Shown here piece by piece: positions 8,089-61,387 of a DNA stretch of 64,000 nt; the first letter of the stretch is position 1, and every line of letters starts with the position of its first letter. The position numbers were made by a program, and so were the translations under genes. The stretch lies in IMG/VR virus record IMGVR_UViG_3300008110_000249. One strand, 5' to 3'. The DNA is from an uncultured virus (IMG/VR IMGVR_UViG_3300008110_000249) (taxonomy: Duplodnaviria > Heunggongvirae > Uroviricota > Caudoviricetes). The notes beneath the pieces were generated by a model, which saw only the letters and a list, made by a program, of their open reading frames with translations, was not told where the DNA came from and did not search any database.

Positions 8089-9805
8089 TTAGGCTGGTGC
8101 ACTAGGACCAGCTGGCGGTAAAGTAGAAGGTTCTGATTGTACCGGACCAGTTGTTTCTGTTTCGTTGGGTGTTTCTTCGGATGTTTCAGGTTGATTCATT
8201 TCTTCACCTGTTTGCTCGTCAGATTCTATATCACCTACACTTACCCCAACATTACGTAAATCTTGACCTGCGGGAGCAACATCATCAGTTTTATTATTTT
8301 CTTCTCTCCATAATTGCTCATTTTTAGATATTTCTTCCTCAGACAAACCTAAGAATCTTTCTAAACAAAATCTTTTACTCATATAAGGTAGTTGTTCAAT
8401 AGAAGAAAAGGTATTAACTCTAGCAGTATCTAACTCGCTTTGTCTATATGCTGCAAAATTTTGTGGTGGATTAAATTTTATGTTAAACAACCCACTATCG
8501 ATATTAAATCCTCTCCAACGTAAGAACAATTTAAATTCTTCATCTAACTTCATTGCAATATAATTTTGCAATCTTTCACAATATTGGTTGAATCTAAATT
8601 CTTGTATCATTGCTGTTCCTACCCTACCGTCACTAAGTGGAGTAGTATTATCATCTGGGCCGGTGGGTAGGTACGAACTAGGCACTCTTAATCCCCTTGC
8701 TAATCTGTTGTTAAAATATCTCAAATCATCAATTTCACCTAAGTTTTGTCCTCCAGGTAAAACTTCTACACTTGATCCCCTTCCATCAGCAGTCACGTCC
8801 ACCATATACACTAGGAATTCGTCGTTGATGTATTTCATTTTTTATTCTTTCTACAAATGCCATAGCCATATGACTAGGCATGTTACCAACATCAATTTTA
8901 AACATCCTACGTTCAGGTGCGCGTTGTACCCTGTATATTAGTACCGCATCTTCAAGTAGTTCTTTTTGTTTATATACTTTAAAAACGTTTTCTAATATAG
9001 ATTGACCAAACGGCCAAAACCTATCTAATCCTTCAGTTAAACTCAAATGTACCACATGTTTTGCATCTACTGCGCTTTCACTCTGACCTAAAGTAAATCT
9101 ACTACCTGTAGTATTGTACGGCATCGCAGGAACTGTATAAGGAGTGTTAGTGCCACCACCGGTTCCTCCTAACCCAGTAGCCGGATTAGCAGCAAAATCA
9201 GTATTTGTTTTCTGTGCTACTGATAAATTTTGAAGATTTATATTTAAATCTTTTAACACATATTGTTCGGGATTTTTACCTTCACTTTCATTTACAATAA
9301 CTTTGATAACTTTAACCATATCTACCCAATATAGTTTAAAATTTTCCGGATCTCTTACAAAAACCTGATCACCATATTTAATTACATTTCGAAAAATTTT
9401 AAATATACGGACATCAAATTCATTGATTTTACACCATTGCTGCAATTGAGTTTTTAGTAATTCTACTTCATGGGGAGTAGGCTCGTCTTTGAATTCTAGC
9501 ATAAATGGCGTTTTATTTTGGTCATTACGCATAGTACTGAATTCTGAAATTATATCTAAACATGCATTTATTTCAGCATCTACATCCATCATTTCATATT
9601 GATTGTATCTTTCTATACGATTAGGATGCCCTGTATAAACTTCGGGTAATCGACTCATATAGTTTCGATATCCCCAATCAAAATTATTCATCCCAGCATT
9701 TGATGAATTTGATTGAGTATTATTCCATGCACCATTATTGCTATTAGCACCTGAAATGGGACTAGATACACCACTTTTATTTAAAAAACGTTTTTTATAT
9801 GTCAT
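8089..9805 (-). CDS. gp20: Portal protein (T4 gp20 family), broken by a frameshifting apparent deletion at ~8797
   Basis: The 5' part has QKELLEDAVLIYRVQRAPERRMFKIDVGNMP. The 3' part has GRGSSVEVLPGGQNLGEIDDLRYFNNRLARGLRVPSSYL. The frames differ by one base at 8797 and the EDY(F/W) motif is absent. Confidence 0.92.
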
Positions 9806-12999: not shown

Positions 13000-13016
13000 T
13001 AAATATAATGTATTTA
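13000..13016. promoter_or_regulatory. Overlapping opposite-strand late promoters for the gp26-like (+) and tape-measure (-) genes
   Basis: TAAATA at 13000-13005 (+) and 13011-13016 (-). Confidence 0.6.
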
Positions 13017-13054
13017 TTATTGGGCAAATACCCATTATCTATAAAGGAATTTAA

Positions 13055-13885
13055 ATGGCATTAGAAAACAATCCACTAAAGCAATATTTTCGTAGACCAG
13101 CAGTATATGTCAGGCTACCTAGCCAAGGAAAATATTACAGTCCTGCTGTATTAGACATGCCGGAAAATCAAGAGTTGCCTATATTTCCAATGACTGCAAT
13201 AGACGAAATTACTACTAAAACACCTGATGCGTTGTTTAATGGTAGTGCAATGGTTGAATTAATTAAAAGTTGTGTACCTAATATAAAAGAACCTTGGTCT
13301 ATAAACAGTATGGACGTTGATGCAATATTGATAGGTATCAGAGCAGCATCAAACGGTGCTGAAATGGAAATAGAATCATCATGTCCAGCTTGTGATACTA
13401 TAGGTAAATATGGGTTAAATTTAGTAGCCATGCTAGCACAAATGAAACCTGGAAACTATGATGAGAGTTTTGAGATTACTGATTTAAAAATAAAATTTCG
13501 CCCATTAACATACCGTGAAATGAATGAGGCTAGCATAGGACAGTTGGAAATTCAGCGCATGTTTATGATGCTAGAGCAAGAACCCAACGAAGAACTACGT
13601 ACTGAAAAAAGCAAAGATACCCTAAAAAAAGTTACTGAACTAACCATGAGGCTCTTAACCGGAGCAATTGAATATATCGAAACGCCCAATGCTAGAGTCG
13701 ATGATAAAACTTTTATTGCTGACTTTTTAAGAAATTGTGATAAAAATTTATTCGTAAGCATACGAGACCATAATGCAGATTTACGATCACAAACTGAAAT
13801 TAAACCATTTAAAATCAAATGTGTAAATTGCACTCATGAATATGATCAACCTTTTACATTGAACTCATCTGATTTTTTCGAATAA
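13055..13885 (+). CDS. Baseplate hub assembly protein (gp26-like)
   Basis: NPLKQYFRRP..LPSQGKYY, PMTAIDEI, and two CxxC pairs; lies next to the tape-measure gene. Confidence 0.75.
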   Translation: MALENNPLKQYFRRPAVYVRLPSQGKYYSPAVLDMPENQELPIFPMTAIDEITTKTPDALFNGSAMVELIKSCVPNIKEPWSINSMDVDAILIGIRAASNGAEMEIESSCPACDTIGKYGLNLVAMLAQMKPGNYDESFEITDLKIKFRPLTYREMNEASIGQLEIQRMFMMLEQEPNEELRTEKSKDTLKKVTELTMRLLTGAIEYIETPNARVDDKTFIADFLRNCDKNLFVSIRDHNADLRSQTEIKPFKIKCVNCTHEYDQPFTLNSSDFFE

Positions 13886-14109
13886 TGCTTCTAAAACTAG
13901 ACCCCGATAGTTTCCAGAAGCTGCTTGACGACTACGAAAAAATAGTAATAGATATTAAAAAAAGTGCCATGACAATGGCATGGTATATGAGGGGTGGTGC
14001 GACATATGAAGATATTTTAAATATGTCCACTACCGAACGCGAGGCGTTAAAAGAACTCATCGATAATAATTTAGAAACAACAAAAAAATCTGGACTCCCG
14101 TTCTTCTAA
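13885..14109 (+). CDS. Small baseplate hub assembly/chaperone protein (gp51-like position)
   Basis: TAATG-coupled to the upstream gene; motif WYMRGG.TYEDILNMS..ER. Confidence 0.6.
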   Translation: MLLKLDPDSFQKLLDDYEKIVIDIKKSAMTMAWYMRGGATYEDILNMSTTEREALKELIDNNLETTKKSGLPFF

Positions 14110-14612
14110 AGATAAAAATAATATCCGTAGTTATTCATATACTAAGATTTATTTTTAATATTATCTTTACAAGATGTCCTTACGGACATCTACGAACTAT
14201 ACTCACTTCGTTCGTATAAGATTCGTTATTCTAAAAGATTCTTTTTGTCATGTATCATACGGCTAATATTTGCCGCTTTAGAGTCCATGGTAGTGCTATT
14301 CAGCACTACCTTTGGTAATTTGCCATGCTTCATCACCCTAGCCGCTTGTACCCGTAATATCATCCTATTTTTGATATATTACGCTACCGGTTGCCCTATA
14401 AAGTTTATGGTCTGTAGTGAAGATAATGTTTTTATATAACACCTCTTCGGCAACGCACATCCTATAACATCAAAGCAGAGTAGTTATAGGCTTGTTGAGT
14501 GTTCGCTTTGTCGATTGCACTCTCGGTATTCCAAGGATACTAATCCTTGCTACTCCAGATCCGTCGGCGATATTTCACGCTTCCTCAAGGAGGGTCGAGC
14601 AACCCCGACCAA
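14107..14612 (-). ncRNA. Candidate large structured non-coding RNA of unknown family
   Basis: The only long intergenic region in the window. It holds at least 10 helices, some nested into multi-way junctions. Plus-strand A-C mismatches become G-U pairs on the minus strand, and there is a GUAA (GNRA) tetraloop on the minus strand. Confidence 0.7.
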
Positions 14613-14618
14613 ACAAAT

Positions 14619-15191
14619 TTAAAGACTTAAAATGTTTTTGATTTCTAAATTTTGAATAGGCGACGGGGTGTCTGCTTTGTTTTTAATAGAAGAATATGTT
14701 TTAAAAATATCTTTGTTATATTTCCAAAAGTGATCAAATTCTATTATTAGCCAATCATTATGTTTTTCTGATGTATAATATAAAAATTGATCAGTGATCC
14801 AAGTTAATTTTGATTCTACGCAGATGAATTTACCTTTTCTATTAAATTTCATGAAAAGAACATTTAGATCCATTGGCTCTGAAACAGCCATAACTTGATC
14901 TATCCATCCGTCTAATACTTTACAATTGCCTGCTAGTACTAAATGAAATGGAAAATCTGCATAACTCTTGCATTCAATATTAAGTCTTGAAAAACTTTGA
15001 CCGGGTACAATATCACCCTTAAAACTACGTATTTGACCTTCATGTAAAAAGTCTTTACGTTGTTGATTTTTGCCCCCAACATATGCACCAGATCCCGGTG
15101 CACGGATAAATGATTCACCGTATGTTTTGGTGAGAAATTGAGCGATTTCTCGCTCAAAACTTGATCCTTTTTGTTTCTGTGGGCTAGTCAT
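14619..15191 (-). CDS. Holliday junction resolvase-like PD-(D/E)xK nuclease (Hjc type)
   Basis: KGSSFEREIA...GD...IECK motif. Confidence 0.8.
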   Translation of the reverse strand: MTSPQKQKGSSFEREIAQFLTKTYGESFIRAPGSGAYVGGKNQQRKDFLHEGQIRSFKGDIVPGQSFSRLNIECKSYADFPFHLVLAGNCKVLDGWIDQVMAVSEPMDLNVLFMKFNRKGKFICVESKLTWITDQFLYYTSEKHNDWLIIEFDHFWKYNKDIFKTYSSIKNKADTPSPIQNLEIKNILSL

Positions 15192-15226
15192 ACAATTACT
15201 TATCTTTATCGTGGTGCTCTGTAAAT

Positions 15227-16981
15227 TTATCCTATCTCAGTGCTAGATTCATAAGTCGAGAATCCATTTTCTTTGATAACTTTTAGTACACTATTTACTC
15301 GCATGGCTAGTTCATCTTTGTGACTAACTAACCAAATTGATTTTTGTCTACGCCGGGTCATGTCTTTCAAGATGCTTATTGAATTTTCCATTCCTACTGC
15401 ATCAGTGCCGTTATCAAGCAATTCATCAATAAATAAAACATTAATAGGGCTATATAAATTCTCCCATACATCCCTAAAAGCCCATGACAATGATAGAATT
15501 AACCGATTCATTTCACCTCTAGAAAGATTATAGAAATCCATTTCTCTTCCTAGTTCTGTAATTTGAACCTGTAAATCGTTTTGAAAAACCACCTGATGTG
15601 GTAAACCTATTTTGTCTAAATAATAAGTTAGTCTAGCATTTAAATAACTTAAATTCTGATCAATAATTTTCTTGCGAACAAAACTGTCTTTACTAGTCAA
15701 CAGGTCTAGCAAGAATTTTTGATGCTCCATAGTCTTTGTTATTCTATTAATAGAGTCAAAACTAATTTCTTGCAGAGCTTGGCTCTCCATTTCATGAATC
15801 TGCTCATCATATGGGTCACAATCATTAGTTTTTGATTCTATTTGTTTTATTAAATTTTCTAATTCTGAACTATGCTTGATTGCTTCGACTTCAGTATCAT
15901 AATGAGTAATTGGTTTTTCAGAAACGAGGATAGGATTGTCGGCTAATTCATTTAACTGATGGCTCAACTCTTTTAAGATAGTCTCACTTTCAGTGAGTAA
16001 ATTAAACTTACTATTAAGAACTGATGTATGTTGGTCATCATGAAATTCTTGACCACAAGCATAACATTTGTGGTCATTTAATGTTTTTACTTCAGTTTCT
16101 AATTTAGTTTTATTTTTGTTTTCTTTGGTAATTTCTTTTCGTAAACTGTCGATTTTACTAATATATGCATTTTTTAATTGCACTTGCTGATTATAAATTG
16201 ACAAGTTTTTGTGTGCCTGTACTTCTTTTTCTATGTCTACTTTACTTAACCTGTCATATTGTAATGCAAGTTTTTCTAAATCTTCTTGATGTTTAGTTTG
16301 CCAAAGTTTTTGTCTGCGTTTTAGGCTTTCAATCTGTTCTTTAACTCTCTTGTTTGCCTCTTCTACTGCTTTAATACGAAATTCTTCTCGTTGAATATCA
16401 TCTTTACTTTGACGCAATAAATCTTTTACTACTTCTGCCTTTTCAGAAAGTAAAGTAATACCTAATAATTGTTCGATTATGTCTCTTTGTTCGTTAGATT
16501 TAAGTGCTAAGAACGGTTCACTGTATGTATTTAATGCAATGATATGTTTGAACATGTCGGGTGTCATATTAAGAACACGCTGGATATTAGCCTGTGTTTC
16601 TTTGTTTTCACCTTGGGCATCATCAATATTTTTTTGTAACGTGTCGTTCACATAGAATTTCAATACATTAGGTTTTCTGCCGCGTTCAATTTTGTAATCA
16701 ATACCGTTGACATTAAATTCTAGTGTTACTAGCATTCCCTTGGTATTAGTTCTATTAACTAAATTATCTTTTCTAATATTGTTAATAGGTTGTCCAAATA
16801 AGGCATAAGATAATGCTTGAACCATAGTTGTTTTGCCAACCCCGTTTCTAGCACCATCCCCACCTAAATCTAGGTTTTCTCCTAAGATTAAGGTTAGTTC
16901 ACCTTTGTCAATTTGTATGGCTTGGGTCACGTTCCCTACACTGAGGAAATTACGCATTGTTAAATTTTTAAGATTTATCAT
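15227..16981 (-). CDS. gp46: Rad50/SbcC-like recombination ATPase (T4 gp46)
   Basis: Walker A GARNGVGKTT, Zn-hook CYAC, signature LSRGE and Walker B LFIDE. Confidence 0.95.
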   Translation of the reverse strand: MINLKNLTMRNFLSVGNVTQAIQIDKGELTLILGENLDLGGDGARNGVGKTTMVQALSYALFGQPINNIRKDNLVNRTNTKGMLVTLEFNVNGIDYKIERGRKPNVLKFYVNDTLQKNIDDAQGENKETQANIQRVLNMTPDMFKHIIALNTYSEPFLALKSNEQRDIIEQLLGITLLSEKAEVVKDLLRQSKDDIQREEFRIKAVEEANKRVKEQIESLKRRQKLWQTKHQEDLEKLALQYDRLSKVDIEKEVQAHKNLSIYNQQVQLKNAYISKIDSLRKEITKENKNKTKLETEVKTLNDHKCYACGQEFHDDQHTSVLNSKFNLLTESETILKELSHQLNELADNPILVSEKPITHYDTEVEAIKHSSELENLIKQIESKTNDCDPYDEQIHEMESQALQEISFDSINRITKTMEHQKFLLDLLTSKDSFVRKKIIDQNLSYLNARLTYYLDKIGLPHQVVFQNDLQVQITELGREMDFYNLSRGEMNRLILSLSWAFRDVWENLYSPINVLFIDELLDNGTDAVGMENSISILKDMTRRRQKSIWLVSHKDELAMRVNSVLKVIKENGFSTYESSTEIG

Positions 16982-17685: not shown

Positions 17686-18702
17686 TTATAAGGTGTTGTA
17701 AATTTCTAATAGAATTTTTTTGTCAAAAGATTTACTTTCTATAGAATTAATTTGATCAAGTATGATCTTATCCACACTTTCAAACTTTAAATTATCTATA
17801 CTTGCTTGTTCTATTTGATCTAATTTCATTGGAATCAATGTCATTTCACGAAGTTTGTGCTCTGGAATCCAAGTTTCACGTAAAAAGTTTGCCTCTTCAT
17901 AACTAATTTCGATATCCAAATGAACTCTTACATGGCTATCAATGAGAAGAAATGCTTCTGGTTGCTCAAGAATCTCACTCAATTTATGAACTCTAAACAC
18001 GGGTTGTCTTGGCCAACTATAGAATACAGGATCATTGCCCCATTCTAATACCATCATACCTCTGGCATCGTCTCCTGCATCTGCATAGTTATGCGGGAAA
18101 GCATTACCTATATATAATATATTTTTTCTAGCCTGTCTTTTATGGAAATGTCCACTGAATACTTTTTCAGCATTCAAAAAATCATCTATTTTTAGTGATC
18201 CTTCATGGTCAGGCATTAATACTTGTGCATTCATGTAAAAGTTACCTAATTCAAAATGACCAAATATATATTTAGATTTTACTTTTTTAATTTTTTTGGA
18301 CTCATCACCTATTAACCATGGTGATAATGTAACGTCACCTTCGGTATATATATCATTAATTACATGAACGTTAGGCAGATAATCAGCCCAAGCTACGCTA
18401 TGTATATCTCTCTTTTCTCTATAATATAGATCATGATTTCCGGTTATAAAATATACATTAGTAAATGATTGGTTAAGTAATTCCAAACATTTCATAGAAT
18501 AATGCAAACTATGAATGTTGATGCTCGCTCTATGGTTGTGCCAATCGCCGCATACTATAGCAGTTTCACAATTTTCTTTTTTTGCAGTGTCGATAAACCA
18601 TTTAACAAAGTTAAGACAATCTTCATTGTGAACAATACTATTGCTTTTTAAGCCTATGTGCAAATCAGTAAATACCGCTGCTTTTTTGAAAAGATTACTC
18701 AT
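17686..18702 (-). CDS. gp47: Mre11/SbcD-like metallophosphoesterase nuclease (T4 gp47)
   Basis: Motifs DLH, GD, GNHD, GHFE and SGHFH. Confidence 0.95.
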   Translation of the reverse strand: MSNLFKKAAVFTDLHIGLKSNSIVHNEDCLNFVKWFIDTAKKENCETAIVCGDWHNHRASINIHSLHYSMKCLELLNQSFTNVYFITGNHDLYYREKRDIHSVAWADYLPNVHVINDIYTEGDVTLSPWLIGDESKKIKKVKSKYIFGHFELGNFYMNAQVLMPDHEGSLKIDDFLNAEKVFSGHFHKRQARKNILYIGNAFPHNYADAGDDARGMMVLEWGNDPVFYSWPRQPVFRVHKLSEILEQPEAFLLIDSHVRVHLDIEISYEEANFLRETWIPEHKLREMTLIPMKLDQIEQASIDNLKFESVDKIILDQINSIESKSFDKKILLEIYNTL

Positions 18703-18708
18703 TTTATA

Positions 18709-18737
18709 ATGATATTACTATTCGTTGCCGAATACAA
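18709..18737 (-). promoter_or_regulatory. Sigma70-like promoter upstream of gp47 (probably leaderless transcript)
   Basis: TTGTAT-N17-TATCAT, then 6 nt to the ATG; no Shine-Dalgarno. Confidence 0.5.
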
Positions 18738-18773
18738 ATCGATTGGGAGAATATAGAATTATACCAAAAATAT

Positions 18774-19667
18774 TCACTCTTCGTATGTCGTACTTGAAGA
18801 ATTCTGTCTGCTCCAAGAAGGAGCCAATCCATTTATTTCTAGTATGTCATCTCTTATATTTTGGTTTCTTTTTTCTGTGTTTAGTACCCTACAAAAACTA
18901 TTAGTAATAGCAGCGGTATAGTACGCAAAAGGATTAGCACTTTTAGCCTCGTTGAAACGTAATCCCACATATGTTAGTTGCAAAATAGCACTTGCTTGCA
19001 TTTCATCTCGATAGGTATAGCCCCGCCAGTTGAATTTCATCGCATATTTTTCACACATCATGATATACATACGTGCTAATTTATTAGTTATTTTTCCGTG
19101 TTCTTTACTAAACGTACCATTATCAATGCCACCAACCCAGTGACTCTTACCTACACAATACAAACTTCCATTTTCATCTATTTTATAATGCTGGAATGGT
19201 GGGAAGTTTACTTTAACGTGAACCATATCATCAATTTCATTTGTAGTTGCTTGATCTTCTAAATCGGAAAAAAGATCGTCTATGTCAGCATCTTCAAAAT
19301 CAAATATATCTTTTGCTGTTTTCTTTTTAACAGTCTTTCTTGGCTGTTTTGGTGAAACGGGTATATGGTCCCATGTCATAACTCTAAAAACTAACTCAGT
19401 GATAGGTATAGATTCAGCAGTGACTGCCGTACCTAACTCATTAGACAATCTTACTGCTCTAGTATTTTTTGCTTCTTCTATTATTTCTGTATTAAAGATA
19501 TGTTCAAATGATTTTTCTAATGACTCTTGTGGCATATCAATGATAAAATCATATCGATGATATTCTGGTTTAGTAAAATAGCAATAACTTGATTTACTTT
19601 CGTGTATTTCTTTTAAAATATCTTTATTATTTAAGTAGTTGACTGGTTTTTTATTGATCATGGTCAT
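18774..19667 (-). CDS. gp55: Late-transcription sigma factor (T4 gp55 family)
   Basis: NYLNNKD at the N-terminus, NWRGYTYRDEM, and FNEAKSANPFAYYT. Confidence 0.9.
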   Translation of the reverse strand: MTMINKKPVNYLNNKDILKEIHESKSSYCYFTKPEYHRYDFIIDMPQESLEKSFEHIFNTEIIEEAKNTRAVRLSNELGTAVTAESIPITELVFRVMTWDHIPVSPKQPRKTVKKKTAKDIFDFEDADIDDLFSDLEDQATTNEIDDMVHVKVNFPPFQHYKIDENGSLYCVGKSHWVGGIDNGTFSKEHGKITNKLARMYIMMCEKYAMKFNWRGYTYRDEMQASAILQLTYVGLRFNEAKSANPFAYYTAAITNSFCRVLNTEKRNQNIRDDILEINGLAPSWSRQNSSSTTYEE

Positions 19668-31467: not shown

Positions 31468-34400
31468 ATGTCCGCAAGAATAAGAACTTTAGATTTTTTA
31501 CCAGAAGTATTCAAAACAAAAACTAACGCTCAATTTTTGGCTGCTACGTTAGATCAAGTGGTAGCGCAACCTGAAATAAAGAAAATTCAAGGTTATATAG
31601 GTAGCAAAGTTGGTTATGGAATAAATGCTAAGGATTATTATGTCACTGAGCCTACTAAAACTAGGACAGAATATCAATTAGACCCAAGTATAATATTTAA
31701 AAAATCAAATGAAAATACCGCAAAAGATTTCATTACATATCCTGGCGTATTGGATGCACTGAAATTAGAAGGTGGTATCGTTGAGAATAATAATAGGTTA
31801 TTTAATAGTCAATTTTATTCATGGGATAGTTTCACTAATTTAGATAAGGTAATAAACTATAATCAATATTATTGGCTTCCAGAAGGTCCGGCTAGTGTAG
31901 TGGTCACTAACGATATCGTTTATTATTCCAATGATTATACTATAACTGACAATCCCACTACATATACTGTCACTTCAGTAGATGAATCTGTAGGGTCGGT
32001 CAATCCTACTTTAACTTTCCTTCGTGGCGGAACATATACTTTTCACGTAAATCAATCTACTGCATTTTGGATACAAGGGGAACCTGGTACAACTGGATTT
32101 AGCGTTGCACAACCCAATATGCAGACTAGAGACATTCTAGGAGTAACTAACAATGGAATTGACCAAGGGATAGTAACATTCACTGTTCCGCAAAAAGATG
32201 CTCAGTCAGAATATGATTTTCCAGGAAATAATTTAGTTGACGTTATTAGCAATATACCATTTAATCAATTAAATGGTTCTAGAGTCTCTGATTTAATTAA
32301 TGGAGTAGACAACGTAACTCTATTGAATGGGCTTACTGTAATGTTTTATAATACAGGTGTGCCTTCAGAAATAGGATATATATCTAACTTTTTTGATTAC
32401 ACTTCATATGATTATAATAACGATATAACAAATCTTTTAACAGTTTCAATTACTGACACCAATGCAGTAACCAATGAAATTACGTGTAATAGTACTGCAA
32501 ACTTATCAGTAAATAATACAATTATTTTTACAGGTGCTCCTGTTGGAAACTTAACCATATATTCAGGTGGATCCCCATACACTATATTTTACATCAAAGA
32601 AATAACAGGACCTACAACATTTATTATATCATCTGAATTAGATTTTTATAATCCTGTTGTTTCTTCAGAAATTGAATCAGGAAGACAATACAAAATTGTT
32701 TCTTTGGGGACAACTGATTTTACTTTAATAGGTGCTGCTAGCAATACAGTAGGTTTAATTTTTACTGCAACTGGCTCAGGCATTGGCACTGGCACTGCTA
32801 CATTAGATAGCACATATCAGTTAATAACTGATACTGGTTTGACAACCGGCGTCATAAATCAAGGTGAATACGAACAAGGATACTATACTAATGTAAACGA
32901 TTACTTTTATAAAATAACATACGTCGGTGATCCTTCTGATCCAGTTATACGATTGACTGAACATTCTACCATACCAACAAGTCAAAAAATAACAGCGGTA
33001 TATGGTTTAGAGTACATTTCAAGAAGTTTTTATAGAAACAGTTTAGGTTATATTAATATAATACCTTATTTAAGTGCTCAACTAGACACATTATATTATC
33101 AAGATGGATCTAGTGCATCTAAGGTTGGTAAAATAAGACTAATAGAAAACAATCTAACCAATTCACTAGATGTTGATTTAGATATATTAGGTAAAGATCA
33201 GTTTACTTCTACCAATGGGGTTGTATTTACTAATGGCCTTAAAGTCAATTTTCAAGGTGATGTTGTACCTAGTAGTTATCTAAATGGAGAATACTATGTA
33301 GAAGGGGTAGGAACAGCAATAGAATTGATTCCTACTACTGATTTTGTTACTCCAGAAAAATATACATCTACTAGTTATGTAGCATGGGATACTATGCCAT
33401 GGGACAGTACAGCATGGGAAGGTAATTCATATATACCTACAATTCCTGAGTACATTACTATTGCTAGAAATTCAATTGATAAAAATGCATGGTCTAGAGG
33501 AAATAGATGGTTCCATATTGATGTTATTAATGCGACTGCACTATATAACAATAATCCTCAACTAGTCACCGTATACACTGGTTTAGATAATAAAGCAAAA
33601 AGACCTATTATTGAATTTTATCCAAATTTAAAATTGTTCGATAATGGAGTGCAAGGTAAATCATCAGTAGATTTTGTTGATATACGGACTACTGATGCAT
33701 TTACTTACGTATCCGGTCAGCAAAATTATTATCCAGATATAGAGGTATATTCTGAATATACCGGAACTATTTCTAGTGTTAATTACATTGCATATAGACA
33801 AATAATATCAGGAAATAATACTACTGGTATATTTGACACGGATACCGGGTATGACACGACTGGATTTAGACTTAATGATCTAATAGTTTTTGATGATATA
33901 ACTCCCACATCCGGCATCACAGCAGGTGCACCGTATTATATCTCAGAAATTGTATCTAGTACTGAATTTAAGATATCTTCTTCTAAAAACGGAAATAGTG
34001 TAATCCCTAATATTTTAATAACAGGTCCTTATGCATTTACATGGTACCCACAGAGTACTACTTTGTCTATCGATGCAGATGCTATCGTGGGAAATCTATC
34101 AGTAGGGCAATACATAACAGATTCTACTAATGTATTACCTAGAAATTCTCAAGTTTTAGAAATCTCAGGAACAAGTACACTTACAGTAACAATAGGGTGG
34201 GATATATTATCTACCTATTTTACGACCCAAACTAATTCATCAATTGTTGCTAGTGACACTACTGTAGATAATTATGCACTATTTGATGGTGCAAGAATAG
34301 TTTTTTCAGCTGACATGAATACTAAAAATAAGATTTATGTGAGCAGAATTTCTAAAGTTTCATCATCATCCCCTGCATTAATCACCTTATACGAAGCAGA

Positions 34401-37400
34401 AGATGGCGATGTATTACCTGACCAACAAGTAGTTGTTTTACGGGGGTATCAAAATGCCGGACTTAATTTATGGTATGATGGAATAGATTGGGTAAATGGT
34501 CAGCAGAAAACAGATGTGAATCAGGCACCTTTATTCGATGTGTTTGACGAAAACAATATAAGTTTTGGTGATAAAACTGTATACTTTGGTACATCCTTTA
34601 TAGGTAATAAGTTATTTTCATATGGATTAGGAACTGGCCTAGATGACAAGATTTTGGGATTCCCTATTAGGTATAGTTCTGTAGATAATATCGGCGACAT
34701 TAGTTTTGATGTGTCTATAAATTCTAGCACTTTTGATTATGTTCAGGGTATTAAACCTATCACACAAAAAGTTAATACAGGGTATGTTTTTGAATATAAA
34801 AACAGAACAGAATATATCAGACAATTAGGGTGGCAAACAGCAGTTTCTCCCTCTATACAATATCAAATATTTTCTTTTAACTATGACCCGTTGATTCCAA
34901 ATGTTACATTTGTATGTGATATATCTAAACTTAGTAGTACAGAAACTAATTGGCCTACCATAAAAGTATTCAATAATAATCAAATATTATCGACTACTGA
35001 GTATACTGTAACAGTAGGACCAACTACGACGGAAGTTACATTATCGAATACACCTCTAACAGAAACAGTTATACAAATTTTTATTTTAAGTAATCAAGTA
35101 AGTAATACAGGATATTATGAAATACCTATTAACTTAAATAACAATCCGTTAAATGATGACTTAACTATAGTAGATATAGGGGATATTAGAGGACAATATC
35201 AAAGTATGTTTTTTAATAATCCAAACTCCACCGGAAATGTATTTGGATCCAATAATTTCAGAGATTTAGGTAACATGGTACCATGGGGTGATAAGATCAT
35301 TCAAAATAGCGCGTCGTTTCCGTTGATGGGCGCCTTTTTGAGAGAACCAAAATTTAATATTTTCAATGCATTGCAATTCAATAGTAAAGAGTATATTAAA
35401 TTTAAGAATTTATTAACCTTCACTGTACAAAACACTGATTATGAACGTAGATATTCAGCAAGTGAAATGCTAGATGATGCATTAGATCAGATTACTTCTA
35501 CTAAAACAGAAAACCAATCATTCTTTTGGTCAGATATGCTACCTAGCAAATCTCCTTATAGTGTAAATTCCTACAGTTTTGCCAACAGTTTAGCAGTATC
35601 AATATACCCATTAACACGTGTGTATGATTTTACTAGTGCTAATTATTATGGAGTTTTAGTTTATTTGACTAGAACTACTAATAATATAACTACGGTTACT
35701 CAACTTATAAAGAATGTAGATTATAATATAAGCGCAGACTCGCCGTCATTGACAGTAACTATATCATTATTACCAAATGATATAATAACTATTAAAGAAT
35801 ATAATCAAACATATGGTTCATATGTGCCCAATACTCCTTCAAAATTGGGTTTATATCCTTCATATGAACCTGAAGTAATATTAGATATCAATTACAATAC
35901 TCCTACATATTTTATTAGAGGCCATGATGGATCATATAACAAATTGTACGGTGAGTATAATTCATTAACTCAACAATTAGAAGATTTTAGAGATCAAGTA
36001 TTACTAGAATTTGAACTCAGGATATTTAATAACTTAAAAATTTCTGCCGAGATTCCTATATCAGAATATGAATTAATTCCGGGGTATTTTAGACAGACTG
36101 AATATTCTTCAGAGGAATGGATTAATATATATTCACCACAATTTTTAAATTGGATAGGTCAAAATAGGTTAAATTATAAAACTCAATTTTATAACGTAGC
36201 GAATTCTTTTACATATAATTACAACCAAAGTGGAAATTCAATAGACAAGTCTGTTATTAATCAAGGTTATTGGAGAGGAGTATATCAGTATTACTTTGAC
36301 ACTACTACACCTAACACTACTCCGTGGGAAATGTTAGGATTTACTTCAATCCCTACTTGGTGGACTGATAGATATGGACCTGCACCATATACTAGTGATA
36401 ACTTAGTGTTATGGTCGGATTTACAAGACGGATTAATTTGGAATAACGGAGATGCCTACGTAGATCCGTTATTTGCAAGACCTGGATTATTAGATATAAT
36501 ACCAGTGGATGACGGCGGTAATTTATTGTCTCCTATAGATTCCGTAGTTGGAAACTATAATTCAAAATTATTTCAAAAAGACTGGAAAGTAGGAGATAAT
36601 AGTCCAGTAGAATTTAGTTATAGAAGAAGTAGTACGTTCCCCTTCGATTTAATTAGAATACTTGCACTTACCAAACCTGCTAAGTTTTTTAATCTAGCGT
36701 CAAATTTAGATGATTACAAATATAATGAAGAGTTTAATCAATATCTTGTTAATAATAGAAGTCATTTAAAACTATCAGATATATCAATTTACGGTAATGG
36801 TGTTCCGTCAACTAGTTTTATTAACTGGGTAGTTGACTATCAAAAACAAGTAGGCATCGATGCTACAGTACAACTTACTGAATATTTAAATAATATCGAT
36901 GTAAGATTAGTTTACAGACTTGCAGGGTTCAGCGATAAGACTCGTTTAAAATTTTACGTAGAGAAAGGTTCACCTAATAGTAACAATGCCAGTTTGTTAA
37001 TACCTGACGAAAGTTTTGGTGTATTATTATATGACAATCAACCTTTTAATAGAATAATATATTCTGGATTAGTTGTTCAAAAAGCAGAAAAAGGATTTAC
37101 AGTATACGGCAACTCACAAAATTTTGCGTATTTTAAAACATTGAAGCCAAAGTTTTCAGGTAATTATGAAAACATTACAATTGAAAAGGCATCTGTAAAA
37201 ATAACTAATGAGCATTTTGCAATAGAGCAAAACATCCCGTATAATACAACTTTTTACACTATTCAAGAAGTAGCGCAATTTATATCTGATTACGGTGCAT
37301 ATTTAGAATATCTAGGCATGGAATTTTTATCTCAAGAGCAAGATGTTACTATTAATTGGGATCAAATGATTGCAGAATTCTTATATTGGAGTCAACAAGG

Positions 37401-40400
37401 TTGGACAGTAGGAAGTCTGATCACTCTTAATCCGGCTGCAAAAAATCTCACAATTAATAAAGATAGCAATATAGTCCAACCTCTTACTATACAACAACAA
37501 AATTTTGTTTTAAATCAAAACTTATATCCTATACAAATTAAAGATTTGTGTATTGATAGACAAGATACTAGATTTAATATAGAAGCATTAAATCAAGGTG
37601 ATGTAATTTCTTATGGTCAATTTAATTTAAGTAATTTTGAACACGGAATAGTATTTGATAATGTAACTTTATTCGGTGATGTAATATATAATTTAGTTAC
37701 AGGATTGAGACAGAATCGTATTTTACTAAAGGGAGTTAAAAGTGCAAGTTGGAACGGAACCATAAACGCAGCCGGGTTTATCTATAATCAAAATAATATA
37801 GAAGAATGGAATGGTAATCGTACATATACCAAAGGTGAAATAGTATTATATAAAAATAAGTATTGGATTTCTGAAAAAATAGTACAACCTAACTCAATTT
37901 TTAATGAGAATGAATGGAAAATAACAGATTATGATGAAATTCAAAAAGGATTATTACCTAATTCAAGCACTAGCAGTTATGAAAGCACTCTTTATTATGA
38001 TGTGAATCAAGCAAACTTGGAACTTGACGCAGATCTTTTATCATTTAGTTTGATAGGATATCGTCCCAGAGATTACATGGCATTAGCAGACTTGTCAGAT
38101 ATAACACAGGTTAATGTCTATAAAAATATCATAAAAGATAAAGGAACATTAAACTCTACTAGTGCTTTTAAAGGAGCACAACTTCCGCAAGGTGGTATTA
38201 ATTATGATGTTTTTGAAAATTGGTCAATAAAATCAGGTGAATTTGGCGGGGTCCTCAATGATAATTTTGTAGAGTTTAAAGTAAATCAAAAGTACATGAC
38301 AGGTAATCCTTCAATCGTAGGACTTACCGACGGAGTACATTATGTAGGCGTACAACAAGAAGTACCATTATATTCATTGTTTAATTACGGTAGACCAATA
38401 TCTACACCAAACATTTTACCTACTATTCCCAATGAGCAGCCATCTGTACTATTCCCTACTGCAGGATATGTAAATTACAATGACGTAAAAATGTCTGCTT
38501 TTTATTATGCACAACTGTCTACTGCAATTAATAAAAACGGAACTGTTATACCCATTCAACAATTTTATGTTAGAGATTATGCTTGGTTAGCAAATTATTT
38601 AGAAAACTGGGATATCTTTACTCCCAATTCAATTGGGCAAGTGATATCTATCATTAATAATTTAAATGATAGTTTAACTATTATTTTCAATAAGCCACAT
38701 ACTCTTTCAGAATTTGAACCTTTTGCTATAGTAAATTTTGATCCAGTTATTGATGATTACTACCTAGTTGCAGTAGTGATAGATCAATACAGAGTGCTGG
38801 TTACAAAAGCTTTAGATCCCTCTATCAAAACAATAACCGGTCAAGGAATTGGTTTAAGATTTCAATCACAAAGAGTATCTACTGTGTCTGACATAGAAAC
38901 TCTGCCTTTATTAGATGCTGAATTTAGAAAAAATACAGTATGGGTAGACACAGCATCTTCAGGTAGTTGGGCGGTTTATAGAAAAGATATAAATTATAAA
39001 TTACAAAATCAAATTGTAAAAAACACTACACAGTCTTTAGGTAGCGCAGTTGCAGTGGGAGAACAATTAGGTTATTTAATAGGTGATGCCGATGATGGTA
39101 AAGTATACAGGTACACATACAATAGTTTAGCAAAAGAATACCAACTAGTACAAATAATAAGTGGTAATGTGGGTTTTGGTAGTACGATTGCATACTCAGG
39201 TAATATATATGCAATAGCCCAACCAACTGGAGTTGGTAGGACTGTAAAACTATATCAACTACAAAATACACCAGTATCTGATGATTTCATTTTAGTGCAA
39301 ACTATAAGTTTTCCAACCGGTGCTACTACTTGGGGAACATCTATAGCAATATCAGGTGATCAAAATTGGATATATATATCAGATATTGATAACAATATAA
39401 TACATGTTTACCTGAGATCAACTGTCATAACCTCTGCAGGATATTTAACTATAGGTGATACTTATATTATCACTGAAGTAGGAACTACTGATTTTACTTC
39501 AATCGGTTCTACTTCTAATGTAGTAGGAACTATTTTCATTGCTACTGGAATAGGATCAGGCACCGGAGTGTGTATTAACTATACCTATAGAAATGTAACA
39601 TCAATTGATGGTGATGCATTAGGCTTAACTACAGCAGGTGATAATTTCGGTTACTCATTGTCTACAGATTATGACGGAGATTGTATAGTAATTGGTGCAC
39701 CAAACAAAGATATTAACGGAATATCAAATTGGGGATCTGCTTATATATTCAGTCGCATAGAGCAAAATATAGAAGTACAAAATAGTATTGTACCTGCAAC
39801 ATATCCTCTAATTTGGACTCCTACTAGTTTATCCGGTGCGGTGACCGATACTAACTCAGTGGGAAATGTAATTACTATTACTGTTGCACTAGATGCAGTA
39901 GAAGATATAAATAAACCCATAATGTTTTCGGGCTCAGGCTTTACTGGAACTGACATAATCACGAACAACATTTACTATGTTTCTAGCATATCGGGATATG
40001 ATATTACTATTAAAGAAACTAGGGAAAGTATCGTAGATGTTTCAATTATTACTGCTAGTGGTATATCAAACGCCAATGCTTATATACAAACTGAGCAATT
40101 GAACGTATTTAAAAACGGTACACTGGTTCAAGATAATAATTACGCGGCGGTTAGTAATACGTTAGTATATTTAGGTAGTGTTATACCCGGCGACATTATC
40201 ACTGTAAGCGGATATGAAATTGTAAGAACTCAAACATTAACTACCGCTGAATCTCCGCAGATAGGGGCACAGTTTGGATTAAGTTTAGATACAAATACAC
40301 ATGCTAGCGAGATATTAGTAGGGGCCCCATTTCAGCTGAATTCTCAAGTACAAGAAGGAGTAGTTTATAGATTTACTAATGTTGGTGCAAAATTTGGTAC

Positions 40401-43400
40401 AATAACCGGAACTACCGATTGTACCATAACTACAACTAGAAAAATTTTAATAAATGGGTATCTAGTTACACTTGACTCTGGTAATGCAGAATCCGTAGCG
40501 ACAACTATCAGAAATGCAAATATAACAAACATAACCGCATCAAGTGATGCAGGAAAACTAACAATATCATTAATTAATAATGATCTTGCTCCAATAAATC
40601 AAAAACTATTTTTAAATTTTGATTCTATCACTACAATACAAGAATTAGGATTGACTTTATATGTAAACACCCAAGATATTATGTGCCCACATAAGTATGG
40701 ACCAACACAATTTGGTACAGTAGTTAAATTTAATCAATATGATAGTTTTGTTGCAAGTGCTCCTGTAGGTACTAGATATTCTGCTACTACTTTTGATTTT
40801 ATAGATGATGAAAATCAAGATAATGATACTATATTTGACAACAATGCTACATGTTGGGTAGATGAATCTGAGAATTTTGGTGCAGTTTATATGTTTGATT
40901 ATTTGGCAGAATTTAATGCAAATATAAATAATCCTGGTAAATTCATATATGCACAAAGTGTAAACTCTCCGAATTTAGCATACACACCATTTAACACATA
41001 TGATCAAACTTCAGATATAACAACATCCAATCAGCCTAGATACGGCACAGCATTAGATTTTAATGGATATTCAGTTATAGTGGGTACTCCGAATGACATA
41101 GGATCTACATCGGGAACAAATTATGCAGGATCCGCTACTATATATTTTAATTCGTTGAATGTAAGAGATTGGTCTATATATCGCTATTCAAGTGATGTAG
41201 TGGATATAGACAAAATTTTTAATATACAATTGTTTAATGCAGAGACAAATGTAACTATGGTTTCTTTAGATTATATTGATCCTTTGCAAGGAAAAATATT
41301 AGGTGCTGCTAGAGAAAATATAGATTTTATTTCAAATGTAGATCCGGCGCAATATAATAATTCAGAGAGTTTACCTAAAGGAATTATTTGGACTGAAAAC
41401 AATTTAGGTCAAATTTGGTTAAACACTAAAAATATGAGATATGTAAACTATCATCAAAACAATGATGTTAATTATAATTCTCAATATTGGGGAACTCTAT
41501 TTCCAGGTAGCGATGTTGCAGTTTACAGCTGGATTTCTAGTACCGTGGCACCTAGTCAGTATACTGGTCCAGGCATACCATATGATGTTAATTTGTACTC
41601 TATTCAACTAGTTTTAGATTCTTCAGATGCATTAGTTCCTGTTTATTATTTTTGGGCAAGAAATACTAATATTATTTTTTCGAATAGAAACAAAACACTA
41701 GCTGATTCTGTAATTTCAGATTATATACTTTCTCCTAAGGCGTCTGGAATAAGTTATTTCGCACCATTAATGTCTAGTGTTTATGGACTGTATAATTGTG
41801 ATAGTTATTTTGATGCAAACAATACTGTCTTGCACATTGGTTATAAAACAGGAGACACTAATACTCCCTCTCATTCTGAATTTAATTTAATTAGAGACGG
41901 AAATCCTGATGACTTTTTACCAGGAATACCATTACTAAATAACAGTATTCCCGAGAATCTTTACAGTAAGTTATTAGATAGTTTATCAGGAGTTACTGTC
42001 AGCGGATCCGTAGTACCGAACCCCTATTTACCCAAAGTAGTTCAATCAGGAGTGTTATCTAGACCTAGACAAAGTTTTTTCTACAATAGATTCACTGCAT
42101 TAAAAAATTATTTACAGTACGCTAATAATATACTAAGCAAATACCCTATAACTGAAATAAGACAAGCATCTTTTTTAAATTCTACAGGAGTATTTTTTAA
42201 CACTTCAAGTTATTGGGAATATGTAAATTGGTGGGCTTTTGGTTACAATAATACAACAAAGGCATCTTTACAAGTTCCTATATATGCATCACTCTCTACA
42301 TTAAATGTGCCAATAGGTACTATAGTTAGTGTTTCTGCTAATGACAATGGAAATCAAGAAACATATATTTTCGAAGGTGATGGAATTTGGACTAGGATAG
42401 GATTAACAAACGGAACAATAAATTTCAAATCATCATTGTGGGATTATGAATCCAGTAGATTAGGGTATGGTGACAACTTTTTTGATACTGACTTATATGA
42501 TACTTATCCAAGTGAAGAGACTCGTAATATAATAAGAGCACTAAATGAAGAAATTTATACTAATGAACTATTGATATATAGAAATCAGAGTTTAATATTA
42601 TTATTTAAATATATTCAAAGTGAAACGTCTGAGAATCAAAATTATCTTCCGTGGTTGAATAAAACTTCATTCATTGACGTTTCTCATACCATTAGAGAAC
42701 TTAGACCTATTGAGGTATATCAAGAAGATAATCAAAACTTTCTTTTTGGATATATAAATGAAGTAAAACCATATCATGTATTGATTAAAGAGTTTTTACT
42801 TAAATACACAAAAACTGAAATGTTTAGTGGTAATTTAACAGATTTTGATTTACCAGCAAAGTATAATTCTTCTTTAGGAAAGTTCGTAACTCCTGAAATA
42901 GTATACAGTAATGCTAATGATGACGGTCAGTATTTACCAAATGATCCTATATGGGAAGAACCTGAGTATAGAGAATGGAAACAAAATTATGGATTATCGT
43001 TAACCGGCGAAATAGATGTACTACTTACTACACTAGCATCTTATATTGCACTGAATTCAACAAGTTTTATTGTTGATAATGCACAAGGATTTCCAGTTAC
43101 TGGTATTATAAAAATAGATGACGAATTGATTGCCTACGCCTCAGTTGACCGTGCGTTAAATATTATTTCTGAAATTACAAGGGGGGTAAATCAAACATCA
43201 GTGGCTACCCATATACCAAATACACCTATATATACTGATTTGCCTCCCGTAATTGTATTAGACAGCGGAAGAGCGTACATAGAACCTCCTAAAGTTACGG
43301 CATATATTGATACATCAATGTATCCTATTCCTAGTAGACCGGCTCAATTAGAAGCAGTAATGAGTTCGGATTCTATGATAAGTGTAAATGTAATTGATGC

Positions 43401-56574: not shown

Positions 56575-57514
56575 TATTATTGATATTGCTGATTTGGATA
56601 TCGTATATCTGAGTTATGACGAACCACAGAAAGAAGAATTTTGGCTTAAGATCAAGAATATGGTACCATGGGCTAAAAGAGTTGACGGTGTAAAGGGCAG
56701 TGATGCTGCACATAAAGCGGCCGGCGAAATAAGCGATACAGAAAGATTTATTCTTATTGACGGCGATAATATGCCAACCGAAAGTTTCTTTAACCTGCAA
56801 CTAGATTTTAGCAATAAGGACCCTAAATATAAACTAGCGCAATTTCGTTGGAAAGCGGTCAATGCAGTTAATGGATTGCGTTATGGAAATGGTGGAATGA
56901 GCAGTTGGACAAAAACATATGTTGCTAATATGAAAACTCACGAGGCACAAAAAGACGGAGATGCAACTAGGATTGCTGATTTTTGTCTAGATAGTGCTGA
57001 TAATTTATATTGGGCAATGCATGATTGCTATTCAACGACATATCCAAACTTTACTCCTTTTCAAGCATGGCGTGCAGGATTCCGTGAAGGTGTTAAAATG
57101 TGTTTGAATAGCGGTGAAGTCCCTAGTGTAGAAGAATTTAAACAAACAGTAGCAAGTAGAAACCTCAATAATTTGACCATATGGCATAATGTGGGCAGCG
57201 ATGTAGATCAAGGTTTGTGGGCAATATATGGAGCAAGACTGGGGACATATATGACATTATTAACTGATTGGAATGCACATAATGTTCAATGGTTTGATAA
57301 TTATATAAGTATGTGGGAAGAGCATAAATTTAGAGACCCATTAGATCAAATAGATCAATTAGGTGAGTGCCTATCTGATAAATTAAGTTTGCCTATGTGT
57401 ATGTTAAATCCTGAGCAAAGTAAATTTTTTAAACGTCACTACGGTTCTAATTTTCATAATTTGGGACCATTAATTACAGAGATGGAAATTATTCGAGGCC
57501 TTGAAGGTTGGTAA
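56561..57514 (+). CDS. GT-A (family-2-like) glycosyltransferase
   Basis: LSYDEP, RVDGVKGSDAAHKAA, ILIDGDN (DxD) and QAWRAGFREGVK. Confidence 0.7.
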   Translation: MNSSDIIDIADLDIVYLSYDEPQKEEFWLKIKNMVPWAKRVDGVKGSDAAHKAAGEISDTERFILIDGDNMPTESFFNLQLDFSNKDPKYKLAQFRWKAVNAVNGLRYGNGGMSSWTKTYVANMKTHEAQKDGDATRIADFCLDSADNLYWAMHDCYSTTYPNFTPFQAWRAGFREGVKMCLNSGEVPSVEEFKQTVASRNLNNLTIWHNVGSDVDQGLWAIYGARLGTYMTLLTDWNAHNVQWFDNYISMWEEHKFRDPLDQIDQLGECLSDKLSLPMCMLNPEQSKFFKRHYGSNFHNLGPLITEMEIIRGLEGW

Positions 57515-58920
57515 TGAGTGAGAATCACGAACAAAAAAGAATCAAAGAAATAAAAATCAGGATTGAAAATGAAGTAGGTCCTACTTTTTGTTTAGCCAAA
57601 TGGCACCATGTAACAATGTACTTGCAAAGTGGTGAGACACACAGTTGCTATCACCCACAACCTCATAAAATCCCACTAGAAGAACTTTATGATAATCCTA
57701 GTGCATTGCACAACACGCAGCAGAAAAAAGAAGAACGAAAACTAATGCTAGATGGTGGTAAACCTACTGGCTGTCAATATTGCTGGAACATTGAAGCAAT
57801 GGGTCCTGATTATATCAGTGATAGACATATTCGTAACGGTAGTATCTTTACAGAAGAAAGATACGAACAGACTGCCATGGGCGCATGGAATCAAAACATC
57901 AATCCAGAGTATATAGAAATTAACTTCGGTAATGAATGTAATTTCAAATGTGGCTATTGCCACCCAAAATATTCAACTAGTTTTTATAAAGAAATTAAAG
58001 ACAATGGTCCTGTAACTACAGTTAAGAATCATCGTTGCGATATTGATTGGATGAGATTGTATCAGCGGGAGGATGAGAATCCGTATGTTGATGCATTTTG
58101 GGAGTGGTGGCCTGAAATGCGTAAGACACTGAACATCATACGCATCACCGGCGGAGAGCCTACATTACATCGTAGTACTTGGCGTTTCTTAGATCAAGTT
58201 GAACAGGATCCTATGCCATGGTTAGAAATTAACATTAATAGTAATCTAGGAACAAAGAATGTATTAATTGAAAGACTTGCTAATAAAGTTAAAAAGTTAA
58301 CAGATGAAAATAAGATCAGAACTTTTAAACTTTTTACTAGTTTGGATACATGGGGTCCTAAAGCAGAATATATTCGCACTGGACTTGATTTAGAAGTATG
58401 GGAAAAGAATTTTCACACATACTTGCAAAATACAAACAGTCCTATTACTTTCATGATTACATTCAATATTTTCAGTGTAACTACATTTAAGAGTTTCTTA
58501 GAAAAATTTATAGAATGGCGTAAAATATATGGCTGGTATGATGATCCAGTTAACCCCCAGCACCGCATACGATTTGATACTCCTTATTTGCGAGATCCAA
58601 TCCAATATGATATGAATATTCTTCCTAAAGAAGAATTCATGCCTTACATGTACGAAGCATTAACCTTCATGAGAGAAAATGTTAATGATAAAAGATCAGA
58701 CGCATTTTCTTCAATTGAGTATGAAAAATTTAAGCGTGTAGTTGATTACATGGCAGAAACAGTTTATCCTGAAGAAAAACTTATAGAAGGTCGTAGAGAT
58801 TTTTACAATTGGTTTAATGAATTGGATGAGCGCCGTGAAACAGATATGTTATCTGTGTTTCCAGAAATGTTAGGATTTTATAGATTATGTCAAGAAACGA
58901 ATCATCTAAACCCGTTCTAA
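57514..58920 (+). CDS. Radical SAM enzyme 1 with an N-terminal SPASM/twitch-like Cys domain
   Basis: CNFKCGYC and GGEP; N-terminal FCLAKW..SCYH..CQYC. Start at the TAATG overlap, 57514. Confidence 0.9.
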   Translation: MSENHEQKRIKEIKIRIENEVGPTFCLAKWHHVTMYLQSGETHSCYHPQPHKIPLEELYDNPSALHNTQQKKEERKLMLDGGKPTGCQYCWNIEAMGPDYISDRHIRNGSIFTEERYEQTAMGAWNQNINPEYIEINFGNECNFKCGYCHPKYSTSFYKEIKDNGPVTTVKNHRCDIDWMRLYQREDENPYVDAFWEWWPEMRKTLNIIRITGGEPTLHRSTWRFLDQVEQDPMPWLEININSNLGTKNVLIERLANKVKKLTDENKIRTFKLFTSLDTWGPKAEYIRTGLDLEVWEKNFHTYLQNTNSPITFMITFNIFSVTTFKSFLEKFIEWRKIYGWYDDPVNPQHRIRFDTPYLRDPIQYDMNILPKEEFMPYMYEALTFMRENVNDKRSDAFSSIEYEKFKRVVDYMAETVYPEEKLIEGRRDFYNWFNELDERRETDMLSVFPEMLGFYRLCQETNHLNPF

Positions 58921-61384: not shown

Positions 61385-61387
61385 TTA

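Follow-up and report, generated by a model that had tools for sequence, protein, structure and literature searches.

A predicted large pseudoknotted RNA between recombination and baseplate genes in uncultured T4-like jumbo phages

The stretch of DNA analysed here (the window) comprises 64,000 nucleotides (nt) from the uncultured virus IMGVR_UViG_3300008110_000249 and spans the part of a T4-like phage genome that holds structural and recombination genes. There, PHROG and Pfam scans recognized the major head protein, prohead protease, portal, baseplate genes, a gp55-like late sigma factor, and gp47/SbcD-like and gp46/SbcC-like genes. Between an open reading frame (ORF) of 74 amino acids (aa) on the plus strand and an ORF for a PDDEXK nuclease on the minus strand lies a gap of 509 nt, 14110-14618, which holds no plausible ORF. 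Our analyses indicate that this gap very probably contains a genuine and new structured non-coding RNA gene, encoded on the minus strand. The RNA is a previously uncatalogued, autonomously folding molecule with 11 helices around a multi-way junction and two pseudoknots. It forms the tail of a minus-strand gene string composed of the gp55-like sigma factor, gp47, gp46 and the nuclease, and its immediate surroundings are as follows:

14268..14612, minus strand: conserved RNA core of about 345 nt, P1-P11 and two pseudoknots, delimited by conservation and covariation (5' end at about 14612, 3' end at about 14268)
14619..15191, minus strand: nuclease gene, the upstream neighbour (PF24608 PDDEXK_15, E 7.6e-26; phrog_244, E 8.2e-20)
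13885..14109, plus strand: 74-aa ORF, a convergent neighbour
13055..13885, plus strand: T4 baseplate-hub-like gene, a convergent neighbour (PF12322, E 3.5e-16; phrog_150)

The product of 14619..15191, 190 aa in length, is labelled 'RusA-like Holliday junction resolvase' by PHROGs and PD-(D/E)XK by Pfam. An earlier note, made by a model from the letters and ORFs of this DNA, had drawn attention to the gap as the sole long gene-free stretch and as richer in GC than its flanks. Both observations are accurate: 14110-14618 is the only gap of more than 250 nt among ORFs of at least 70 aa, and the GC fraction in 200-nt windows is 0.39-0.43 within 14200-14699, as opposed to 0.255-0.30 just outside. 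A seeming second gap, at 306-1887, is covered by an open-ended minus-strand ORF of 717 aa.

The RNA is conserved across a large group of related phages. An IMG/VR search with the nuclease protein yielded 234 confirmed relatives, 80 loci of which were kept with their flanks, and a 21-nt pattern from the most conserved stretch of the RNA led to at least 120 further viral loci; all of the 120 viral pattern matches listed are family members. Searches by nhmmer with a hidden Markov model of the alignment found exactly one copy of the RNA core in 201 of 205 viral loci. The four loci without it (L082-L085) are distant relatives of the baseplate gene, and in L085 the baseplate gene and the 74-aa ORF are directly followed by another gene. 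In blastn comparisons, the non-coding DNA that immediately follows the nuclease stop codon shares 67-88% identity with the window along some 350 nt. The flanking proteins vary more than the RNA core, with identities of 55-79% for the nuclease, 39-74% for the baseplate protein and 48-81% for the 74-aa ORF. In an alignment of 55 sequences, 78 columns are invariant; about a quarter of the RNA bases never change, and these are located mostly in junctions and loops.

The gene order is conserved as well. The 74-aa ORF and the baseplate gene follow the RNA in 78 of the 80 loci, the remaining two having too little sequence there, and the nuclease gene directly precedes it in 71, while eight of the other nine have less than 110 nt of upstream sequence. 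Among metagenome contigs, 105 of 120 pattern matches proved to be members, 89 of them near full length, and marine records are included. A survey of prokaryotes at one genome per species (185,579 bacterial and archaeal species) found 29 places that match the 21-nt pattern and no member: nhmmer matched at most 53 nt around the pattern in eight of these places and nothing in the other 21. When 13000-16000 was compared with phage records by blastn, the SbcC-like gene gave the only match. The contigs that carry the RNA reach 190-525 kb, indicating that the carriers are jumbo phages.

The fold itself is supported by several measures. In silico, the region folds better than its dinucleotide shuffles, with minimum free energy z scores of -4.77 for the minus and -4.91 for the plus strand, and none of 100 shuffles was as stable. 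RNAalifold proposed 70 pairs from 55 sequences, 45 of them with compensatory changes. When both pseudoknots are included, an 81-pair structure is obtained (alignment A2, 53 distinct rows), in which 96.9% of the cells are paired, as against 33-42% when the partners are slid by 1-3 columns. Double changes occur in 51 of the 81 pairs, compared with 17-24 after sliding, and the covariation score reaches 0.416 rather than 0.047-0.081; none of 500 shuffles, a control that ignores kinship, matched the structure on any of five measures. Moreover, a separate covariation and mutual-information scan of 108 sequences, less than 97% identical to each other, recovered the same helices and both pseudoknots. 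The earlier note had named conservation or covariation in related phages and folding better than shuffled controls among the conditions for its proposal, and both are observed.

The same alignment identifies the folded strand. Over the 81 pairs, 177 cells are G-U and 25 are A-C, and this excess of G-U over A-C shows that the window minus strand is the one that folds, as had been argued from mismatches in three helices. No coding signal was detected in the alignment: there is no period-3 signal (rank 85 of 187 frequencies), there is no open frame common to the sequences, and the gap runs are mostly not multiples of three in length (remainder 1, 2461; remainder 2, 816; remainder 0, 434).

From the 5' to the 3' end of the RNA, the core contains the following elements:

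14593-99/14604-10, minus strand: P1 hairpin, which starts 9 nt past the nuclease stop codon; 7 of 7 pairs changed on both sides
14589-92 with 14553-56, minus strand: P2, invariant CUCC/GGAG; 100% paired, 3 of 4 pairs invariant
within 14553..14592, minus strand: P2a/b hairpin, enclosed by P2; 4 of 4 pairs covary
14532-38/14543-49 (14532..14548), minus strand: P3 hairpin of variable length; all 6 pairs covary
14386..14527, minus strand: central multi-helix domain, closed by P4 and holding P5, P5a, P6, P6a, P7 and a variable P8
14385-89/14524-28, minus strand: P4, an enclosing stem, invariant ACCG/CGGU; paired, with no variation
14497-501/14518-22, minus strand: P5, in the covariation-tested structure
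14461-68/14483-90, minus strand: P6a, in the covariation-tested structure
14390-95/14449-54, minus strand: P7, an enclosing stem, in the covariation-tested structure
14353-60/14376-83 (14354..14383), minus strand: P9 hairpin; 9 of 11 pairs changed on both sides
14289-97/14302-10 (14288..14311), minus strand: P11 hairpin, near-invariant GGUAGUGCU-GAAU-AGCACUACC; 10 pairs, 98.1% of cells paired, 1 compensatory

The 5' strand of P2 is part of a near-invariant CYCCUUGAG, the alignment has large insertions in P3 of some relatives, and an invariant AUGG directly follows P11. Since P4 does not vary and P11 has a single compensatory pair, the other covarying stems carry most of the support for the fold; in one relative, L077, the P11 stem is doubly compensated. 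A covariance model built on the central domain (R1) gave a single match at E<=0.01 in the window, to 14383-14529 on the minus strand, with 144.9 bits and an E value of 4.8e-41.

Most of these stems had been proposed from the letters of the window: P1, P3, P4, P5, P6a, P7, P9 and P11, as well as the hairpin H-B described below, are borne out in the covariation-tested structure. Two further proposals were partly confirmed. The P8 hairpin (14419-448) is visible in the alignments, but it lies in a length-variable part outside the formal pair count, and of an enclosing stem at 14279-84/14335-40 a core of three base pairs is kept in relatives, while the rest is not. The earlier note was right about most of the stems, but it missed the two pseudoknots, a 3' module and the co-variation of two segments as a direct repeat.

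Both pseudoknots are supported by covariation. They connect the central domain with the strand that follows P9:

14473..14478, minus strand: PK1, 5' strand, in the P6a loop; pairs with 14342-14347; 6 pairs, 5 compensatory, 100% of cells paired
14342..14347, minus strand: PK1, 3' strand, after P9; partner of 14473-14478
14409..14411, minus strand: PK2, 5' strand, NCC in the P7 internal loop; pairs with 14350-14352
14350..14352, minus strand: PK2, 3' strand, directly after P9; partner of 14409-14411

In the set of 108 sequences, the pair counts in PK1 are UA 77, CG 27 and AU 4; GC 66 and AU 41; and CG 75 and UA 31. The variable pair of PK2 is UA in 66 sequences, CG in 24, AU in 7, GC in 6 and UG in 4, in a register that is our own reading of the alignments, as MAFFT partly misregisters the 3-nt variant carried by the window.

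The 3' part of the RNA contains two further types of conserved feature, a pair of direct-repeat segments on either side of P11 and a pair of hairpins beyond the core:

14318..14328, minus strand: segment A, GCAUGGCAAAU in the window, the first direct-repeat copy (columns 306/362)
14268..14276, minus strand: segment B, GCGGCAAAU in the window, the second direct-repeat copy, in the 3' tail of the core (columns 306/362)
14198..14218, minus strand: H-A hairpin, a variable stem around a conserved GA-ACGAAGU-GA interior
14172..14191 (14172-79/14184-91), minus strand: H-B, a hairpin of 8 base pairs capped by a GUAA loop; compensatory changes in all 6 predicted pairs (53 sequences)

Segments A and B co-vary as identical words, not as complements. 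Columns 306 and 362 are identical in 89 of the 108 sequences, compared with a mean of 46.8 and a maximum of 62 in shuffles, and rare variants (GGUAAU, CUGCAUGU, GUUGAA, GGCAUG) change jointly in both copies. No internal column of the RNA pairs with both covarying positions, no consistent complementary site was found in the RNA or its flanks, and complements of the shared word do not cluster within about 3 kb in the 28 loci where that word is at least 6 nt long. The two segments, one on either side of P11, resemble paired recognition sites that a single external partner might contact. A helix between the leader upstream of P1 and segment B, which would close the molecule from 5' to 3', was considered and rejected: cognate duplexes average -3.74 kcal/mol and non-cognate ones -3.69 (Wilcoxon p = 0.52, 93 sequences), and although L055 has 9 perfect pairs, the fixed-column counts are weak overall. 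Elsewhere in the window, neither the H-A loop word nor the P11 3' strand nor CCUCCUUGAG recurs more often than expected by chance.

The hairpins H-A and H-B (14172-14218) are separated from the core by a poorly conserved, variable A/U-rich spacer, and 84 distinct sequences of the 108 contain this 3' module. By eye, the stem of H-A changes between AAGAAC/GUUCUU, AGACC/GGUCU, GUCU/AGAC and UAUAC/GUAUA, and the H-B loop is GAA or of the GNRA type in relatives. The two hairpins may mark or protect the 3' end of the RNA. H-B could form that 3' end or act as a terminator; only a short U-tract follows it, and the terminator scan made no call at this place. Between H-B and the stop codon of the 74-aa gene, a third conserved motif was noticed at 14125-14141 on the minus strand, GAUAAAUGAAUAGUUACGG in relatives and UAUAUGAAUAACUACGG in the window, and complementary CCCG/CGGG arms flank it in several loci.

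The earlier note suggested that the RNA is co-transcribed with the nuclease gene from a late-type TAAGTA promoter. This found no support: 3 promoter-like sites were counted against 7.5 expected by chance, none of them convincing, and the relative L132 has kept the RNA although its nuclease gene has been replaced. The T4 late motif TATAAATA occurs 4 times in the window, with 17.6 occurrences expected; on visual inspection, a TAAATA(C/G)T-like motif seems to be present at several late genes. The clearest promoter-like element of the minus-strand string, on the basis of its consensus match only, is TGGTATAAT, which precedes the gp47/SbcD-like gene (17686-18702) at about 18703-18775 on the minus strand. 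We take it to be a host-type extended -10 promoter element, and it might serve as an early promoter of the string whose last member is the RNA. Immediately before P1 there is a conserved leader of 10-20 nt, which occurs in two variants and fits a nearby start or processing site. The RNA would be made by read-through from the promoters of the string, or from its own promoter close to P1.

The RNA does not correspond to any family in Rfam 15, in keeping with the earlier failure to place it in a known family. There was no match at the gathering score in the entire window, although the families covered include GOLLD, ROOL, HEARO, OLE, raiA, group I and II introns, RNase P, transfer-messenger RNA (tmRNA) and 6S. 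At E<=10, the region 13900-14800 gave six matches of at most 21.1 bits, compared with gathering scores of 50-90, and 20 relatives gave three unrelated weak matches. ARAGORN found no tRNA or tmRNA gene in the window, and our literature search found no description of this RNA. A catalogue of structured RNAs in viruses (Fremin, Bhatt and Kyrpides 2023, PMC10690425), based like our work on IMG/VR intergenic regions and covariation, gives candidates of 29-151 nt in its accessible parts, so that the whole RNA would not appear there as a single entry. The searchable supplementary files of that catalogue contained none of three short motifs and four sample numbers; the catalogue may nevertheless list single hairpins or fragments of the RNA.

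GOLLD and ROOL are the closest in general character. Like the RNA described here, they are large, heavily structured, pseudoknotted and phage-associated, have no adjacent regulated gene, and emerged from comparative analysis of environmental sequence with no function assigned at discovery. They are larger than this RNA, and they often sit beside tRNA genes in phage or prophage DNA. The new RNA differs from both in lacking a match in Rfam 15, in its smaller core, and in its neighbours, which are nuclease and baseplate genes instead of tRNAs. The suggested size of about 450-500 nt, like that of GOLLD and ROOL, was an overestimate for the core of about 345 nt, and with the spacer and the 3' module the RNA reaches about 440 nt. 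What stands of the original proposal is therefore a large, multi-helix, minus-strand RNA just downstream of the nuclease gene, without the proposed promoter and the GOLLD- or ROOL-like size. RNA-only multimeric cages have been reported for GOLLD and ROOL (10.1101/2024.12.08.627333).

Several alternative identities were weighed against these data. The RNA might be the partner of the adjacent PD-(D/E)XK nuclease, as a guide or regulator in the manner of the omega RNAs, with segments A and B as its target-recognition sequences. Its start shortly past the nuclease stop codon, the usual position of that gene directly upstream, and the joint variation of A and B without an internal complement would all suit such a role. 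In HEARO and other omega RNAs, too, a large structured RNA adjoins a nuclease gene, and short variable segments lack an internal partner. However, the neighbours of the omega RNAs are the RuvC/HNH proteins IscB and TnpB, not PF24608 PDDEXK_15, and no Rfam match connects the RNA with them. Moreover, the whole block of gp46, nuclease, RNA, 74-aa ORF and baseplate gene is syntenic in nearly all loci, and thus the adjacency is unspecific. The linkage is broken in L132, which keeps the RNA but has a gene for a SegE-like GIY-YIG homing endonuclease (PF19835, E 9.3e-36) in place of the nuclease gene; no nuclease match was found in the 12,084 nt of this contig. The converse is seen in the cultured jumbo phages PA5oct and SCTP-2, which have the closest cultured nuclease homologues (41-45% identity) with the next gene directly after and no gap; R1 found no match at E<=1 in either complete genome, and nhmmer found nothing significant at either locus. 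Given that the RNA occurs without the nuclease and the nuclease without a gap or an R1 match, an obligate nuclease-RNA pair is unlikely, and the failure to find a complement of the A/B word within about 3 kb adds to the case against target recognition. We consider a guide or regulatory partnership with the nuclease quite improbable, and somewhat less probable than a role of the RNA as a 3' untranslated element in cis, which is itself improbable. Such an element would terminate, process or stabilize the mRNA of the recombination genes, or shield it from convergent baseplate transcripts, as would be expected for the end of a tightly packed minus-strand string that faces convergent genes and carries two conserved hairpins, H-A and H-B. 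Yet a core of this size with two pseudoknots and 78 invariant positions far exceeds the needs of known stabilizers and terminators, the invariant bases cluster in junctions and not in stems, no U-rich terminator was detected, and the element was retained after the swap of the upstream gene in L132. A regulatory leader, such as a riboswitch, T-box or attenuator, does not fit the locus either, because the next downstream gene is convergent, also in the relatives.

A diverged member of a known ribozyme class, beyond the reach of the Rfam models, is a very remote prospect. Group I introns, RNase P RNA and tmRNA do have sizes and pseudoknotted cores in the same range, but no meaningful Rfam match was obtained for the region or its 20 relatives, ARAGORN detected no tmRNA, and an RNA that starts after a stop codon and faces a convergent gene has no exons to join. 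The topology differs as well. Group I introns have a P3-P7 pseudoknot and a P4-P6 domain order, and RNase P has a P4 knot, while in the knots found here the P6a loop and the P7 internal loop both have their partners in the strand that follows P9. Equally remote is an element at the DNA level, such as a replication origin or a packaging or recombination site that folds as single-stranded DNA. The region adjoins recombination genes, and both of its strands fold better than shuffles. On the other hand, the G-U asymmetry distinguishes the strands, two covarying pseudoknots and many invariant bases outside helices are typical of structured RNAs, and no repeats or iterons were seen, the element being present in a single copy per locus.

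Some points weigh against a structured minus-strand RNA gene that acts on its own. The plus strand folds equally well in silico, so that the strand call rests on the G-U asymmetry and synteny, and the DNA-level explanation, however improbable, draws on this symmetry. The shuffle controls do not account for kinship, and the argument is carried by the slid-partner control and the number of pair types. The near-invariant helices P11, P2 and P4 are backed mainly by pairing and not by covariation. No enrichment of sigma-70-like sites or terminators was found within 13800-15400, and the RNA gene and both of its putative ends are defined here by sequence comparison, while its function is our inference.

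As to that function, we tentatively suggest that the RNA may be a trans-acting folded scaffold or a ribozyme. It would act in trans as a folded machine, namely a protein scaffold, an RNA-only assembly scaffold or a ribozyme, because about a quarter of its bases are invariant and lie mostly in junctions and loops, because there is no downstream gene for it to regulate, and because it survives the loss of the nuclease. A cis-regulatory element or a nuclease guide is less likely. Another, more doubtful possibility is that it represents a new class of catalytic or self-assembling phage RNA, built on a double-pseudoknot core, whose twin co-evolving words would engage two copies of a partner.

Some observations on the surrounding DNA deserve mention. 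In L132, the spacer before the RNA (1124-1226) contains two copies of AAACAGACACCAAGTCA, which resemble the conserved 3' end of the nuclease gene of relatives, and this duplicate looks like the scar or target of a homing event. In PA5oct (L235), about 1.5 kb between the baseplate-hub gene and the nuclease homologue (979-2490) is annotated with four ORFs of 117-153 nt only; neither nhmmer nor R1 matched the RNA family there, and the stretch may hold other non-coding elements. In the window, within 13873-13887, the heptamer T TTT TTC stands just before the end of the baseplate-hub-like ORF. The 74-aa ORF, starting at 13885, is in the -1 frame relative to it, and that frame is open from 13873; a -1 frameshift would thus fuse the two ORFs. 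The portal gene (8089-9805, minus strand) consists of two overlapping ORFs in different frames, 8786-9805 for the N-terminal and 8089-8838 for the C-terminal part of phrog_213, which may be a genuine split or result from a frameshift or an assembly error. An open-ended ORF of at least 717 aa at 3-2153 on the minus strand is largely made up of collagen-like G-x-S/T triplets, a giant ORF of 4,715 aa occupies 31468-45615 on the plus strand, and five consecutive radical-SAM-like genes lie at the right end of the window (57508-63624, plus strand).

To conclude, the covariation support for this RNA is about as good as sequence analysis allows, and its family is shared by hundreds of giant T4-like phages, all uncultured, which come from lakes and in some cases from marine samples. 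To our knowledge, only a handful of large bacterial and phage RNAs with complex folds have been described. Each of those solved so far has revealed unexpected biology, such as the guide RNAs of IscB and the RNA-only cages of GOLLD and ROOL. The RNA is a ready target for in vitro folding, cryo-electron microscopy and ribozyme assays, and the unusual co-variation of its two direct-repeat segments might give a clue to its partner. If the more doubtful proposal of a catalytic or self-assembling RNA were true, these phages would possess a trans-acting RNA device without a known counterpart, which engages two copies of an external nucleic-acid or protein partner.

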